Origin: a virus
Taxonomy: Duplodnaviria; Heunggongvirae; Uroviricota; Caudoviricetes
DNA length: 18,845 bases
Strand: one strand, 5' to 3'
IMG/VR virus record: IMGVR_UViG_3300015171_000003
Shown: positions 2,285-18,525 of the stretch, piece by piece
How positions within the stretch are numbered: position 1 is the stretch's first letter
How the letters are laid out: every line of letters starts with the position of its first letter
Notes under the pieces: model-generated
What the model saw: the letters and a program-made list of their open reading frames with translations, nothing else
Database searches by the model: none
Told to the model about the DNA's origin: nothing
Made by a program: the position numbers and the translations under genes

Positions 2285-2542
2285 CTACAATTTGGTTATA
2301 ATCAATCCATTTTCAAGTCCTACAATTTGCTTACAATCAATCCATTCCTGTACACAAGATATTGATAGAGTTGGAAATTCTCCTCTATTATCCTCTACAT
2401 TTTTTAAAGAAATATAGTCTTTTTCAATACTTATATCAGCAACTTCTACAATTGACAGTCTTGGATTAAAATATGCATCGAATGATAATATTGAAAATCT
2501 ATCTCCTGTAATAAGTTCTTTTGCGGCTTTCATATTAATCAA
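2285..2542 (-). CDS. hypothetical protein
   Basis: ORF packed between neighbours and overlapping the upstream stop; may start at the second Met. Confidence 0.65.
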   Translation of the reverse strand: MINMKAAKELITGDRFSILSFDAYFNPRLSIVEVADISIEKDYISLKNVEDNRGEFPTLSISCVQEWIDCKQIVGLENGLIITKL

Positions 2543-3494
2543 TCTTTGGCATAATTATTCCCATATTTCCATTAGGCATACTATGTCCAACAAATTCATC
2601 GGCGGTATGAAGACTAAATTTAGGTCTAGGCACCCAATTATTAAATGTAGCTTCCATTCCATCAATAAATGTCTGACACATATTCTTGGAATTTAAATCT
2701 CCATTAATCATCCAATTTCTACCAATTAATCCTCTTCTTTTTCTTTCCTCTCTACCTAATAAATAAAGTTTCTTAATAGCCTTGGCTCCATCTACCCAAT
2801 CACTATGATCATCAAAAATATATGGCGTTGGTACACTTCCTTGTAAAATTCTCTTTACTGGATATAATGGCACTACCCATTCTCCATGTGTCTTATATCT
2901 GCCATCGTGATTAGACCCCCATTCTTCCGTAAATACAATTGGCTTACCATTATCATCTAAGAACCCACATTGATCTTGAAGACCTCCTGTTACAGTTACA
3001 ATAATAGGAGTTCCAGACATTACACTTTCCGCAGTACCTAATCCAAATCCTTCATTGGAAGCCATATTAATTGTTACATCAACCATGTTATACAATAGGT
3101 TCATTTCTTCTTCAGATGCTCTACCTGTAGAGAAAAGAATGTTTTGTTGTGGACATACCGCATCTCTTGTTGCAATCAAATCTGTGCCAGCCTCATCGAC
3201 AGGATGGGTATGCATTAACAACAAACATTTATCAGACTTTTCTTTTGTGAGAGATTCACAAAATACTCTAAAAGCAAGCATAACATCACTTGTTTGTTTT
3301 CTGCGAATGTTTCTGTTATTATAAAACACAATGAAATCATATTCCTTATCTTTGAATAATTCCTTCTTTTTCTTTTCAATAGCATCAAAATCTTTTTGTT
3401 CTGAATATGGAAAAAATGTTTTTGAATTAATACCGTGTGGACAATATTGGATTAATGTCTTACTTTCTACTTTGTTGTTAATTTTAAAGGCCAT
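2535..3494 (-). CDS. GT4 glycosyltransferase, C-terminal (nucleotide-sugar-binding) portion
   Basis: YCPHGIN, FYNNRNIRRKQTSD, NEGFGLGTAESVMSGTPII motifs. Confidence 0.88.
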   Translation of the reverse strand: MAFKINNKVESKTLIQYCPHGINSKTFFPYSEQKDFDAIEKKKKELFKDKEYDFIVFYNNRNIRRKQTSDVMLAFRVFCESLTKEKSDKCLLLMHTHPVDEAGTDLIATRDAVCPQQNILFSTGRASEEEMNLLYNMVDVTINMASNEGFGLGTAESVMSGTPIIVTVTGGLQDQCGFLDDNGKPIVFTEEWGSNHDGRYKTHGEWVVPLYPVKRILQGSVPTPYIFDDHSDWVDGAKAIKKLYLLGREERKRRGLIGRNWMINGDLNSKNMCQTFIDGMEATFNNWVPRPKFSLHTADEFVGHSMPNGNMGIIMPKID

Positions 3495-3498
3495 AATT

Positions 3499-4109
3499 TT
3501 ATTTTAAATCATTTAATGTAATCCATTTATTTTTTCCAAGAACTGCTTTATTAATATTTTCTGTTTGTTTACTAATTGCAAATAAAGTATCACAAGATTC
3601 ATAATAAGATCTATTATACATGGGATAAATTACGTCATCCCATATATTATAGTATATTATAGGTAATTTTTGCCTCAATTCATGTTCTATTTGAAATACA
3701 AATCCAAAAAATCTAGGATCGGTGAATAATCCAAGTGCATCTGGATTCTCTATCGACATAATTTGTCTAATAATATCTGGATTAGAATATCCGGTACAAG
3801 GATAAATTATTACATAAGCATCTTTAACACCAGTTTTTTCTGCTGTTGCTTGTGATAAATCTACTCTTTTACCTTCTTCTGGATGTTGCAATAATCCTCC
3901 TACACAACACCAATCATATTTATGTACTGTTCCAAATACTAATTCTCTTGCCATCGTTGCGATTCCACTTGAAAATCTAATTTTTCATTGCCCAAGATGT
4001 TACCACCTTGGGCTTCACCAATATCATCTGCCAAAAGAAAAATTTTCTTCTTCTTTAGCTGATGACTATTGGCCCCCTCCAAGGCTACTGTTTCATTGTT
4101 ATTACTCAT
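3499..4109 (-). CDS. GT4 glycosyltransferase, N-terminal portion, interrupted by a 41-nt insertion (joined product about 189 aa)
   Basis: 4109-4020 encodes MSNNNETVALEGANSHQLKKKKIFLLADDI; a different frame resumes at 3978 with RFSSGIATMARELVFG. Joined, this gives the expected GT-B beta1/Gly-loop start KKIFLLADDIRFSSGIATMARE. The ORF track shows only 3499-3954. Confidence 0.8.
3979..4019 (-). other. 41-nt coding-gap element with 10-bp GNRA hairpin, flanked by an ATT direct repeat
   Basis: ATT|GGTGAAGCCCAAGGTG-GTAA-CATCTTGGGCAATGAAAAATT|AGA; stem 4013-4004 pairs with 3999-3990; 18/41 GC. Confidence 0.8.
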
Positions 4110-5491: not shown

Positions 5492-6730
5492 CTATTGTCT
5501 TTCATTACAAAAGTCAATATTATTAGTTTTTTGAGTACAAGGAACTATAGATTCCTTATCTAAAACTTTCCAATAGAAACCTGTCCTATTGTTCTGCTTT
5601 AACCGTTCTTGTTCTCCGATCAGAGACAAGTTAAAAGATAGATTAACTGAAGCATTATAATCCGAATCACATTCATAAGAACATGTTCCACATCTAAACT
5701 TCTTCTTCGTTCTATTACTTTTCCGTACCCATCCACATTTGTTACATCTTTGACTTGTGTAAGTCGGATTTAAACGGTTTACTTGGACACCAAGTAAATT
5801 ACATCTGTCCTCCAACTTGTCTAGGATTTGTGGATAATTCCAATGAGAAAGTTTTCGGCTTGTCCGAAATCCTTTTCTCAAATTTTTTATGTTTTCTATA
5901 TTAATTTGTTTAACATTATTCAAATTTAATTGATTTATACTCCAATTAACAAAATTCTTTCTATGAGTTTGTGATTTTCTAAAATTAACAGAACCACGTT
6001 TCTTTTCGGATATTTTATTTATGATTTTATCTAAAGAATATCCATGATTATCTTCTTTAGATTTAATTCCATTAGAACAATAAAATAAATCTGTCTTTCC
6101 AATATCAATCCCGACAACATTTCCAGTTTCTACTTTTTTTGGTTCTTCTAAATCAAATATGAATGTTATCTCATTTTTAGATAATCTTATTCCTTTCTTA
6201 AGTTTCCCATTTTTTAATATCTTATTAAAATGTTTTGTCTTTTTTATCGGAATTCCTATCTTTAATTTATTTCCAAGTGATGTTAATGTCAACCAGATAT
6301 CAAATGAAGTTTTATTATCAGAATCAATTTTTACAAATCTTTCATCCAGTTCACATTCTAAATTTTCTATATTTGGTTTGTTTTGATTTATATTATTATA
6401 AATTTTCTGTAACTTTCTCGCTTTCTTAAATTTTCCTTGTTCTTTAAATTTATTTATTATAAACAATCTTCTTTGTTGTTTGACTTTTGTTCCTCGAACA
6501 ATCCCACTTGTTTGTTTTCCTAAACATTGGATTGTTCTTGCGGATAACCACGTTTCTACATCAGATGTTAATTCTTTTGGTAACAATGTCGGAACTTTTT
6601 CTAAATCCAATAATTTATCAATAAAAATCTTAGAAACTCTTTTATATTCTTCTATAAAAAAGTCGATTTTATCTAATTTGTTTTTATTAGAAAATTTTAA
6701 AGTGGATTTAGAAGACCGGATCATGATCAA
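5492..6730 (-). CDS. tnpB: TnpB RNA-guided endonuclease (IS607-associated)
   Basis: RuvC-I GIDIG, RuvC-II IENI, PTYTSQRCNKC...CGTC zinc finger, RuvC-III DSDYNAS; catalytic D/E/D all present. Confidence 0.93.
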   Translation of the reverse strand: MIMIRSSKSTLKFSNKNKLDKIDFFIEEYKRVSKIFIDKLLDLEKVPTLLPKELTSDVETWLSARTIQCLGKQTSGIVRGTKVKQQRRLFIINKFKEQGKFKKARKLQKIYNNINQNKPNIENLECELDERFVKIDSDNKTSFDIWLTLTSLGNKLKIGIPIKKTKHFNKILKNGKLKKGIRLSKNEITFIFDLEEPKKVETGNVVGIDIGKTDLFYCSNGIKSKEDNHGYSLDKIINKISEKKRGSVNFRKSQTHRKNFVNWSINQLNLNNVKQINIENIKNLRKGFRTSRKLSHWNYPQILDKLEDRCNLLGVQVNRLNPTYTSQRCNKCGWVRKSNRTKKKFRCGTCSYECDSDYNASVNLSFNLSLIGEQERLKQNNRTGFYWKVLDKESIVPCTQKTNNIDFCNERQ

Positions 6731-7286
6731 GTTCTTTAATTAATTGTTCTGTTTTTCTCTTAGATCTTCTTTGTCCATAAATTCTAGCACAAAATGAAGT
6801 TATTACATTTACAAAATCTTGGATTAAATCTTCTTTTTCATTTAAAATTTGATTGACATAAATTACTTCACAATTTATATGTTTACATAAAGTATCTATG
6901 TATGAAGAACCAAATCTGCTTAATCTATCTCTATGTTCCACTACGAGTTTTGTGACTTTTCCTTCAGATAAAATTTTTAATAATTTTTTCCGTTTATCAT
7001 TTAAACCACTACCAATTTCTTTAATATTTTCATCTGTTTTCCATCCATTTGCATTACAATAACTAATTAATCTATTGGACTGGGATTCTAAATTAATTTT
7101 ATTTTCTGAAGAAGAAACTCTCGCATAAGTTATCACATAATCTTGTTTTATAATAAGATTTTCTTCTGGCACGATGATTGTGCCAGAAGGTAATTTATAT
7201 GCTAGAGGAAGTTCTCCTCTATTAAACATTAACCATGCAGTTCTGTATAATATTCCTTGTTTTTTTGCCCAATGACTTAACTTCAT
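6708..7286 (-). CDS. tnpA: IS607 TnpA serine recombinase (likely start MKLSHWAK at 7286)
   Basis: N-terminal MerR-like HTH, YARVSS catalytic Ser motif, EIGSGLN, VVEHRDRLSRFG, DFVNVITSFCARIYG. Confidence 0.95.
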   Translation of the reverse strand: MKLSHWAKKQGILYRTAWLMFNRGELPLAYKLPSGTIIVPEENLIIKQDYVITYARVSSSENKINLESQSNRLISYCNANGWKTDENIKEIGSGLNDKRKKLLKILSEGKVTKLVVEHRDRLSRFGSSYIDTLCKHINCEVIYVNQILNEKEDLIQDFVNVITSFCARIYGQRRSKRKTEQLIKELDHDPVF

Positions 7287-7313
7287 ACATGATAAGTATG
7301 AAATGGAAATATA

Positions 7314-7343
7314 AAACAATAAAAAATAATAAAAAACAATAAA
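7314..7343 (-). repeat. three tandem 10-bp direct repeats at the IS607 left end (TTTATTGTTT/TTTATTATTT/TTTATTGTTT)
   Basis: Read directly; consistent with TnpA-binding repeats known at IS607 ends. Confidence 0.75.
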
Positions 7344-14469: not shown

Positions 14470-14675
14470 TCTGTAATAGTATCTAATTGTTTCCTAATAT
14501 ATCTCATAAAAATCATTCCTTTATCTTCTGGAAGGAATGTTCCTTCGCCAGTATCAGAAATTGGTACTGGAAATTGAAAATTTTTGTCAACAACTTCATA
14601 CCACAATTCATTTTTCCTATAAAATAGAAATTTAACTTTGGTTCCCGACACTAAATCTTTAATATTTGTTTTCAT
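14466..14675 (-). CDS. hypothetical phage protein
   Basis: 69-aa ORF, FPVPISDTG...FMRYIRK. Confidence 0.75.
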   Translation of the reverse strand: MKTNIKDLVSGTKVKFLFYRKNELWYEVVDKNFQFPVPISDTGEGTFLPEDKGMIFMRYIRKQLDTITE

Positions 14676-18439: not shown

Positions 18440-18525
18440 TGGTAGGAGAAGTGGGATTTAAACCCACGATATCTTGCGATAGATGCTTATGAAACATCTT
18501 GCTTAAATCACTTGCATATTCTCCC
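18440..18525 (-). tRNA. class II tRNA with CAT anticodon (Met/Ile2 anticodon on a Leu-like body)
   Basis: GGGAGAA/TTCTCCT acceptor, A73, CCA, loop TT-CAT-AA, variable arm TATC-GCAA-GATA, T-arm GTGGG-TTTAAAT-CCCAC. Confidence 0.85.

Follow-up and report, generated by a model that had tools for sequence, protein, structure and literature searches.

A Candidate Translational Bypass Cassette Early in a GT4-Like Glycosyltransferase Gene of a Phage

Introduction

To our knowledge, natural programmed bypassing occurs in very few systems, namely gene 60 of bacteriophage T4 with its MobA relatives and the yeast mitochondrial byps, and gene 60 is the only phage case. How the ribosome lets go of one codon and settles on a new one remains a matter of debate, and the classical cases in Escherichia coli, in which a transfer RNA (tRNA) hops across a stop or a slow codon, are low-efficiency or synthetic. 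The present analysis concerns an 18,845-nucleotide (nt) stretch of DNA from a large, uncultured phage of the Caudoviricetes (IMG/VR record IMGVR_UViG_3300015171_000003; the whole stretch is called the window), in which 41 nt interrupt a glycosyltransferase gene on the minus strand. With a probability of roughly 65%, this gap would be crossed by productive bypass from the codon AUU at 4022-4020 to the AUU at 3981-3979. On this reading, the gene, which encodes a GT4-like glycosyltransferase, carries at its 5' end a gene-60-like bypass (hop) cassette whose origin is separate from that of the MobA element, and the 41 nt are the coding gap of this cassette. No paper describing bypass in glycosyltransferase genes was found in the literature.

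In T4 gene 60, a 50-nt translational bypass occurs together with a MobA homing-endonuclease element (10.1101/2022.08.31.505936; 10.1101/2024.12.09.627546). The MobA/gene 60 architecture consists of an endonuclease, an added N-terminal extension, a short target-homologous region, and the gap, which shields the element's own genome from cutting and persists after the nuclease has been lost (10.1101/2022.08.31.505936). For gene 60, Wills et al. propose that progressive pairing behind the ribosome drives its forward movement (10.1101/2024.12.09.627546). The byps of Magnusiomyces capitatus mitochondria are described as hairpin inserts of 27-55 nt in AT-rich coding DNA that are flanked by matched codons and bypassed to yield a collinear protein; there are 81 mobile copies, which begin with a codon that has no tRNA (10.1101/2022.08.31.505936).

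The locus in the window resembles gene 60 in several respects. Its gap measures tens of nucleotides, lies inside a conserved phage gene between matching take-off and landing codons, and holds a compact tetraloop hairpin followed by an AU-rich 3' part. A stem-loop 5' of the take-off codon may drive forward movement, the interrupted frame carries an N-terminal extension, and relatives have a stop codon after take-off. The cassette is associated with free-standing homing endonucleases and would survive their loss. Unlike in gene 60, the host gene encodes a glycosyltransferase rather than a topoisomerase II, the linked nucleases are of the DUF7487, DUF723/HNH, and DUF559 types rather than MobA, gaps of 5-41 nt occur at the site, and the take-off codon closes the upstream stem-loop on its 3' end, where gene 60 has it within the 5' side of a take-off stem-loop. 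The window also lacks a stop or rare codon after take-off and a Shine-Dalgarno (SD)-like element near the landing site. Because it differs in host gene, in nucleases, and in where the take-off codon sits within the RNA structure, the window cassette, which on the evidence of its sequence would work like gene 60, is no member of the MobA element.

With byps the locus shares a hairpin-forming insert in AT-rich coding DNA flanked by matched codons; unlike byps, it is single-copy, begins with a common codon, and resides in a bacteriophage and not a mitochondrion. Relatives with gaps of 5-6 nt show the signature of the short E. coli hops (codon, stop, matching codon), but here the site is conserved in natural genes and equipped with a dedicated stem-loop.

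Results

A 41-nt Gap Splits a Conserved Glycosyltransferase Motif

The interrupted gene encodes a GT-B, GT4-like glycosyltransferase, as indicated by a match to Pfam PF00534 (Glycos_transf_1; E 1.1e-7) in the C-terminal open reading frame (ORF). The family of phage GT4-like glycosyltransferases comprises more than 7,600 matches, and about 190 N-termini share the near-invariant sequence KKILLLSDD[LI]R[MF]xSG[IV]AT, which covers a strand and a Gly-loop and in which the motif KKILLLSDDLRMHSGIAT is conserved. Named relatives include gp90 of Flavobacterium phage immuto, which is contiguous (480 amino acids [aa]), and the gene of Microcystis phage Mel-JY01, which is split. The two nearest relatives, P0122 (KKKKIFLLADDIRFSSG) and P0003 (KKKKIFLLADDIRWHSG), are unbroken at the junction discussed here.

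In the window, the minus-strand ORF that starts at ATG 4109 reads MSNNNETVALEGANSHQLKKKKIFLLADDI, leaves the family frame, and ends after 56 aa at TAG 3941-3939. The -1 frame is closed by TGA 3987-3985, after which it reads K-I-RFSSGIATMARELV... until TAA 3501-3499. Exactly 41 nt separate KKKKIFLLADDI from RFSSGIATMARE. Their deletion in silico (4019-3979 or, equivalently, 4022-3982) yields DDIRFSSG, the exact reading of the nearest uninterrupted relatives, P0122 (KKKKIFLLADDIRFSSGVATMARE) and P0003, and outside the gap the gene is collinear with the family. The 18-aa N-terminal extension is absent from both of these relatives and resembles the extensions of three interrupted lineages (L020, L103, and L346).

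The gap consists of 6 nt, a 24-nt hairpin, an 8-nt A-rich spacer (AAUGAAAA, AU-rich), and the landing ATT (Table 1). Its GC content is 18/41, in a window of 0.22-0.36 GC per 500-nt stretch. The hairpin, whose 10 base pairs (bp) include one G-U, occurs once in the window, with no occurrence expected from shuffles. The codon that follows take-off, GGT, is the second most used Gly codon (14.9 per 1,000 codons) and thus not rare. An earlier note on this DNA, made from the letters alone, had reported the split motif, the bounding ATT codons, the base composition, the hairpin with its GTAA loop, the closed resume frame, and the lack of a stop after take-off; all of these observations were reproduced.

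The insert is also carried, without mismatch, by the Logan assembly of run ERR4837132 (L108), which speaks against an assembly artefact, with the qualification that both assemblies may rest on the same reads. The Logan contigs break at window positions 3606-3623, about 360 nt downstream of the gap, where L108 ends at 3606 and L013 begins at 3623 with an 18-nt overlap.

Interruptions at the Same Position in Related Lineages

In about 165 homologous loci, DD[IL]R is continuous; uninterrupted were 80 IMG/VR loci and 77 of 78 JGI loci. The alignment of homologues with and without an insert, which the earlier note had proposed, reveals ten other lineages that are broken at this same boundary. Junctions were collected from the DNA of nine family proteins starting MxSGIAT and from pattern scans. 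Variable-gap scans returned 154 loci with one true glycosyltransferase, L346, and a TGATT-type scan gave two false positives only. Ten junctions, including that of the window, are tabulated (Table 2), and ten relatives, or eleven interrupted lineages in all, are counted. The gaps measure 6 nt in five lineages, 5 nt in three, 39 nt in one (L346), and 41 nt in the window.

Removal of each gap restores the family consensus exactly. A stop codon directly follows take-off in all ten relatives, and only the window is without one. Reassignment of a stop codon was rejected as an explanation, since TGA, TAG, and TAA all occur in this position and the 5-nt gaps shift the frame. In 8 of 10 lineages, the take-off and landing codons encode the same amino acid, and in 3 they are identical; the chance of 8 synonymous pairs is about 7e-8 if lineages are treated as independent. 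The flanking codons also change together, as seen in L018 (CTT/CTT) versus L021 (CTG/CTG). L014 and L191 share an extension (..RHIEQ..), yet their gaps measure 5 and 6 nt, and L346 and the window, which share a layout, differ by 39 versus 41 nt, which implies that the gap is not read in triplets.

L103 is present in five assemblies, three of them identical and two differing by 2-3 nt over the 346 nt compared. A profile of short upstream ORFs retrieved about 20 further small ORFs ending precisely at ...LLLSDDL, DDLR, or DDI. Two others, P0280 and P0334, continue past DDI/DDL into unrelated tails of 12-13 residues with no immediate stop; they may be other stop-less gap versions or sequencing errors.

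Between sister interrupted lineages, differences after the gap bear the mark of purifying selection (L020 versus L103, pN 0.16 and pS 0.77 for nonsynonymous and synonymous changes; L014 versus L191, dN/dS 0.29), and the codons of the upstream strand differ mostly synonymously among interrupted lineages. By these signs, the interrupted genes are alive. Recent transfer of the cassette was considered and dropped: nucleotide identity near the gap is not clearly above that further into the gene, and there is no sign of recent horizontal transfer.

L346 Shares the Layout of the Window

The longest gap among the relatives has the same organization as that of the window. L346 reads GAC GAT ATT, 39 nt, and AGA ATG CAC AGT, and its gap opens with TAA and 3 further nt, continues with a GC hairpin of 10 bp that is capped by a tetraloop (-18.2 kcal/mol), and runs through six A-rich nt to a landing ATC. 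An intact ORF of 456 aa follows. The L346 protein begins MSNNN, like that of the window, and its gene neighborhood is also the same, while the two N-domains are only 46-47% identical. Since TAA stands directly after the take-off codon, the gap hairpin of L346 cannot be translated.

A Covarying Stem-Loop Ends at the Take-Off Codon

In every cassette, the N-terminal extension supplies the 5' arm of a stem-loop whose 3' arm is the LLSDD coding sequence, ending at the take-off codon. The 100 nt up to take-off fold with -23.0 (window) to -31.0 kcal/mol in seven interrupted loci, compared to a mean of -9.5 kcal/mol (standard deviation 3.3, minimum -17.2) in 90 uninterrupted loci (Mann-Whitney p 5.8e-6). 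The arms covary: the Asp codon pairs GACGAC, GATGAC, GACGAT, and GATGAT face GUCGUC, GUCAUC, AUCGUC, and AUCAUC, respectively. When arms were swapped computationally, the own 3' arm was the best partner for 7 of 9 5' regions and second to that of a sister cassette in the other two (-21.8 for own and -12.0 for swapped arms; permutation p 1e-5).

In the window, region 4109-3950 folds with -51.3 kcal/mol (z = -5.7). The take-off codon sits at the 3' end of the upstream helix and the gap hairpin begins 6 nt past it; in its extended form (4073-4017), the helix takes in the AUU of take-off and GGU, the first codon of the gap, as paired positions. A further pairing is available between GCCUUGG (4085-4079) and CCAAGGU on the 5' side of the gap hairpin, and the complementarity of the 5' half of the gap to upstream RNA exceeds that of 99.4% of shuffles (p ~0.005).

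The SD-like sequence GGAGGGGG (4080-4073) forms an anti-SD duplex of -11.2 kcal/mol, against a background 1st percentile of -9.3, and motifs in the same place in L103, L020, L018, and L193 score -10.9 or lower. In 5 of 9 cassettes, the base of the stem-loop is preceded at 5-8 nt by a GGAGG-like motif, in DNA that is very AT-rich and whose start codons lack an SD. The L014/L191 lineage has no such motif, and in L346 the G-rich element is instead the 3' arm of the hairpin, close to the landing site.

ARAGORN identified a single tRNA in the window (CAT anticodon; 18440-18525, minus strand) and no suppressor tRNA able to read the stops of the relatives.

Homing-Endonuclease Genes Are Enriched Upstream of Interrupted Genes

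An endonuclease gene lies directly upstream of the glycosyltransferase gene in 5 of 11 interrupted lineages versus 2 of about 166 uninterrupted loci (Fisher p 6.7e-6). DUF7487 genes occupy this position in L020, L021/L022, L193, and the P0089 contig; their PHROG matches, to families of endonucleases and homing endonucleases, are weak, and a TnsA-like match is faint. A DUF723/HNH gene is found there in L191, and a degraded remnant in L103. The interrupted loci with an upstream endonuclease match the MobA/gene 60 architecture (10.1101/2022.08.31.505936). The window and L346 have no adjacent endonuclease and would represent cassettes that have lost it.

In L003 and L049 (IMGVR_UViG_3300046092_000171), a DUF7487 gene lies directly upstream of an uninterrupted glycosyltransferase gene whose loop reads SGVACQ and not SGIATM. 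Self-immunity may have been achieved here by substitution instead of a gap.

Table 1. Positions of the interrupted glycosyltransferase gene and of its proposed recoding elements in the window.
Feature	Position	Strand	Remarks
First coding piece of the glycosyltransferase	4020-4109	-	ATG, 18-aa N-terminal extension (MSNNNETVALEGANSHQL), first strand KKKKIFLLADDI; aligned to relatives
SD-like GGAGGGGG	4073-4080	-	Immediately 5' of the stem-loop; anti-SD duplex -11.2 kcal/mol
5' stem-loop	4017-4073 (core 4066-4023)	-	3' arm consists of the LLADD codons; folding energy of the core roughly -16 to -17 kcal/mol
Proposed take-off codon ATT (Ile)	4020-4022	-	Relatives interrupted at the same position
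41-nt coding gap	3979-4019	-	Same layout as the 39-nt gap of L346
Gap hairpin, 10 bp, GUAA loop	3990-4013	-	-18.5 kcal/mol; 5' arm also complementary to GCCUUGG 4085-4079
Proposed landing codon ATT	3979-3981	-	Decoding would resume at AGA 3978-3976; resume frame shut upstream by TGA 3987-3985
Rest of the N-terminal GT-B domain, RFSSGIATMARELV...LNDLK, then stop	3499-3978	-	50-68% identity to phage glycosyltransferase N-domains
C-terminal GT-B domain, separate ORF	2535-3494	-	Glycos_transf_1; 4 nt past the N-domain stop

Table 2. Junctions of the interrupted lineages at the shared codon boundary.
Lineage	Take-off	Gap	Resume
L014	ATC	TGATT	AGA
L103	CTC	TGATT	AGA
L020	TTG	TAGTG	AGA
L018	CTT	TGACTT	AGA
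L021/L022/L192	CTG	TGACTG	AGA
L189/L193	CTT	TGACTC	AGA
L191	CTT	TGACTA	AGA
L016	CGC	TGACGT	ATG
L346	ATT	39 nt	AGA
Window	ATT	41 nt	AGA

Discussion

A simple model would suggest that the ribosome is halted on arrival at AUU 4022-4020, in the relatives by a stop codon in the A site and in the window by the 10-bp GC hairpin at the mRNA entrance, 6 nt downstream. The upstream stem-loop would re-zip behind the ribosome and pull the mRNA forward, and in the window the helix could extend over the take-off codon into the gap. The peptidyl-tRNA-Ile would unpair, the ribosome would slide across the gap, and the tRNA would re-pair at AUU 3981-3979 in the A-rich stretch past the hairpin, so that decoding resumes at AGA and continues as ...LLADDIRFSSGIAT.... 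As to its origin, the gap may break a conserved DNA target of the endonucleases, as proposed for T4 mobA and gene 60, and the cassette of the window would since have lost its endonuclease. The earlier note had listed bypass from AUU to AUU as the first of four options, and the gaps of 5, 6, and 39 nt at the same site, the matched codons, and the covarying stem-loop now favor it.

Several observations weigh against this model. The stem-loop of the window is the weakest of the set, no slow A-site codon (stop or rare) follows take-off, GGT being common, and the gap is without an SD-like element near the landing site (anti-SD pairing inside the gap amounts to -2.4, compared to -10.5 in L346). No close relative of the window phage was found: the best matches show 68-69% protein identity, and none above 69% exists in the 5.8-billion-protein set, IMG/VR, or the JGI metagenomes. 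Landing codons are poorly matched in two short-gap lineages (CTC to ATT in L103 and TTG to GTG in L020). The lineages are partly related, so the p-values overstate their independence, and the short-gap cases were first found via Met-starting ORFs, which biases this subset towards an ATG after the gap.

More broadly, and as a tentative proposal that goes well beyond the reading of the single locus, the family may constitute a second natural phage bypass system, independent of gene 60 and modular, in which re-zipping of the upstream helix across the take-off codon is the main driver and one cassette serves gaps of 5-41 nt. The window would then need no stop or rare codon, RNA structure alone acting as the trigger, and the cassette would confer self-immunity for at least two unrelated homing-endonuclease families. 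The family forms a natural series at one site, with gaps of 5, 6, 39, and 41 nt all behind a covarying upstream helix, and the series varies both the stop codon, which the window lacks, and the in-gap hairpin, which most members lack. The proposal that mRNA pairing behind the ribosome drives the movement thereby becomes open to direct test. The series also adds to the view that a homing endonuclease spares the genome that carries it by having its target broken there, with the ribosome left to mend the reading. For annotation, it is important to note that gene callers truncate such genes, here to a 151-aa N-half.

Alternatively, the window gene could be crippled or decaying, an ancestral short hop site of the kind in L014 and L103 (ATT-TGA..TT-AGA) having been hit by about 36 extra nt of hairpin DNA, so that little or no N-domain is now produced. 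At its 3' end (TGA, four A, TT, and then AGA), the gap resembles the TGATT gaps, and a gene in decay would be in keeping with the weakest stem-loop, with the window being the only lineage that lacks a stop after take-off, and with the lack of close relatives showing conservation of the 41-nt version. Such decay is nevertheless unlikely: L346 keeps the hairpin layout at 46-47% identity with an intact downstream ORF, ATT codons flank the window gap exactly, the gap is complementary to upstream sequence, and both domain ORFs are intact.

A second alternative, a gene expressed in pieces, appears very unlikely. The 56-aa product would provide the first strand in trans, and the remainder would start at ATT 3981 or ATG 3954 or, in the relatives, by reinitiation at an ATG past the stop, with the stem-loop placing the SD-like motif close to this second start. 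Consistent with this scheme, an ATG lies 3-8 nt past the stop in most short-gap relatives, the SD-like motif precedes the stem-loop in 5 of 9 cassettes, and the gene is already split between its two domains. There is, however, no ATG, GTG, or TTG before the conserved SG loop in L191 or in the window (RFSSGIAT); L191 reads LRAHSGVAT after its stop, with its first start-like codon inside the loop, so reinitiation would lose the conserved loop. The effective spacing from SD to ATG would be about 16 nt, the matched flanking codons would be purposeless, and a Rossmann-type domain that lacks its central first strand is unlikely to fold.

The remaining options of the earlier note have lost ground against productive bypass. 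After translation of the hairpin, a -1 slip of tRNA-Lys on GAA-AAA-U (3987-3981) would place 14 additional residues, GEAQGGNILGNEK plus I, between DDI and R; the gap has no stop in the zero frame, and a five-A run precedes the landing ATT. This is highly improbable, because there is no X-XXY-YYZ heptamer (U-GAA-AAA), only a weak 6-bp helix lies 3 nt downstream, whereas a programmed site would have a structure at a distance of 5-9 nt, the insert would fall into the most conserved loop of the family, and L346, with the same layout, has TAA immediately after take-off. Excision at the RNA level, by which a nuclease and a ligase would remove a tiny intron, would suit a compact hairpin that is bounded by short repeats and kept in both long-gap versions (window and L346), but scarcely deserves more credence: no Rfam match was found at E up to 1 and no bulge-helix-bulge motif, and the 5-6 nt gaps, which share the site and the stem-loop, cannot be introns. 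Least probable of all is an assembly artefact or an unrelated, miniature mobile palindrome that duplicated 3 bp of its target. The GC-rich palindrome within AT-rich DNA and the ATT on both sides might suggest this, but the insert lies exactly at the recoding site of the family, is single in the window, recurs neither in 777 kb of related loci nor in IMG/VR (0 copies of the exact hairpin), and is reproduced by a second assembler. A degenerate scan for the hairpin in 596 Gb of GTDB genomes yielded 6 singletons, consistent with chance.

Additional Features of the Window

The N- and C-terminal domains of the glycosyltransferase are encoded separately in the window. At 3492-3501 (minus strand), ..ITLNDLK is followed by a stop, 4 nt, and MAFKINNKVES.., with short added tails and no endonuclease inside. 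Such splits are common in the family, in which many C-halves of about 330 aa occur alongside fused forms of about 490 aa, and the fused relative P0003 has a linker at this position. Endonuclease genes are located exactly in the split in L010 (1608-2474, DUF559), L014 (6519-7106, EndoVII/HNH-like), and L020 (5262-6404, DUF723/HNH). The arrangement recalls Aeh1 nrdA with MobE, an example of genes in pieces made by free-standing homing endonucleases (10.1101/2022.08.31.505936), in that the gene is split between domains with short tails and relatives hold endonuclease genes inside; unlike Aeh1 nrdA, the split in the window measures only 4 nt and is devoid of an endonuclease.

Two other GC hairpins of the window, at 7162-7190 in an IS607-type TnpA gene and at 14548-14570 in a 69-aa ORF, were examined as possible further inserts and rejected, being in-frame coding palindromes. 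The former is a 13-bp palindrome in frame within TnpA (PSGTIIVPE). It belongs to an IS607-type pair carried by the phage (5492-7319, minus strand), in which the gene for the serine-recombinase TnpA (6708-7319) overlaps a TnpB/Cas12f-like gene (5492-6730).

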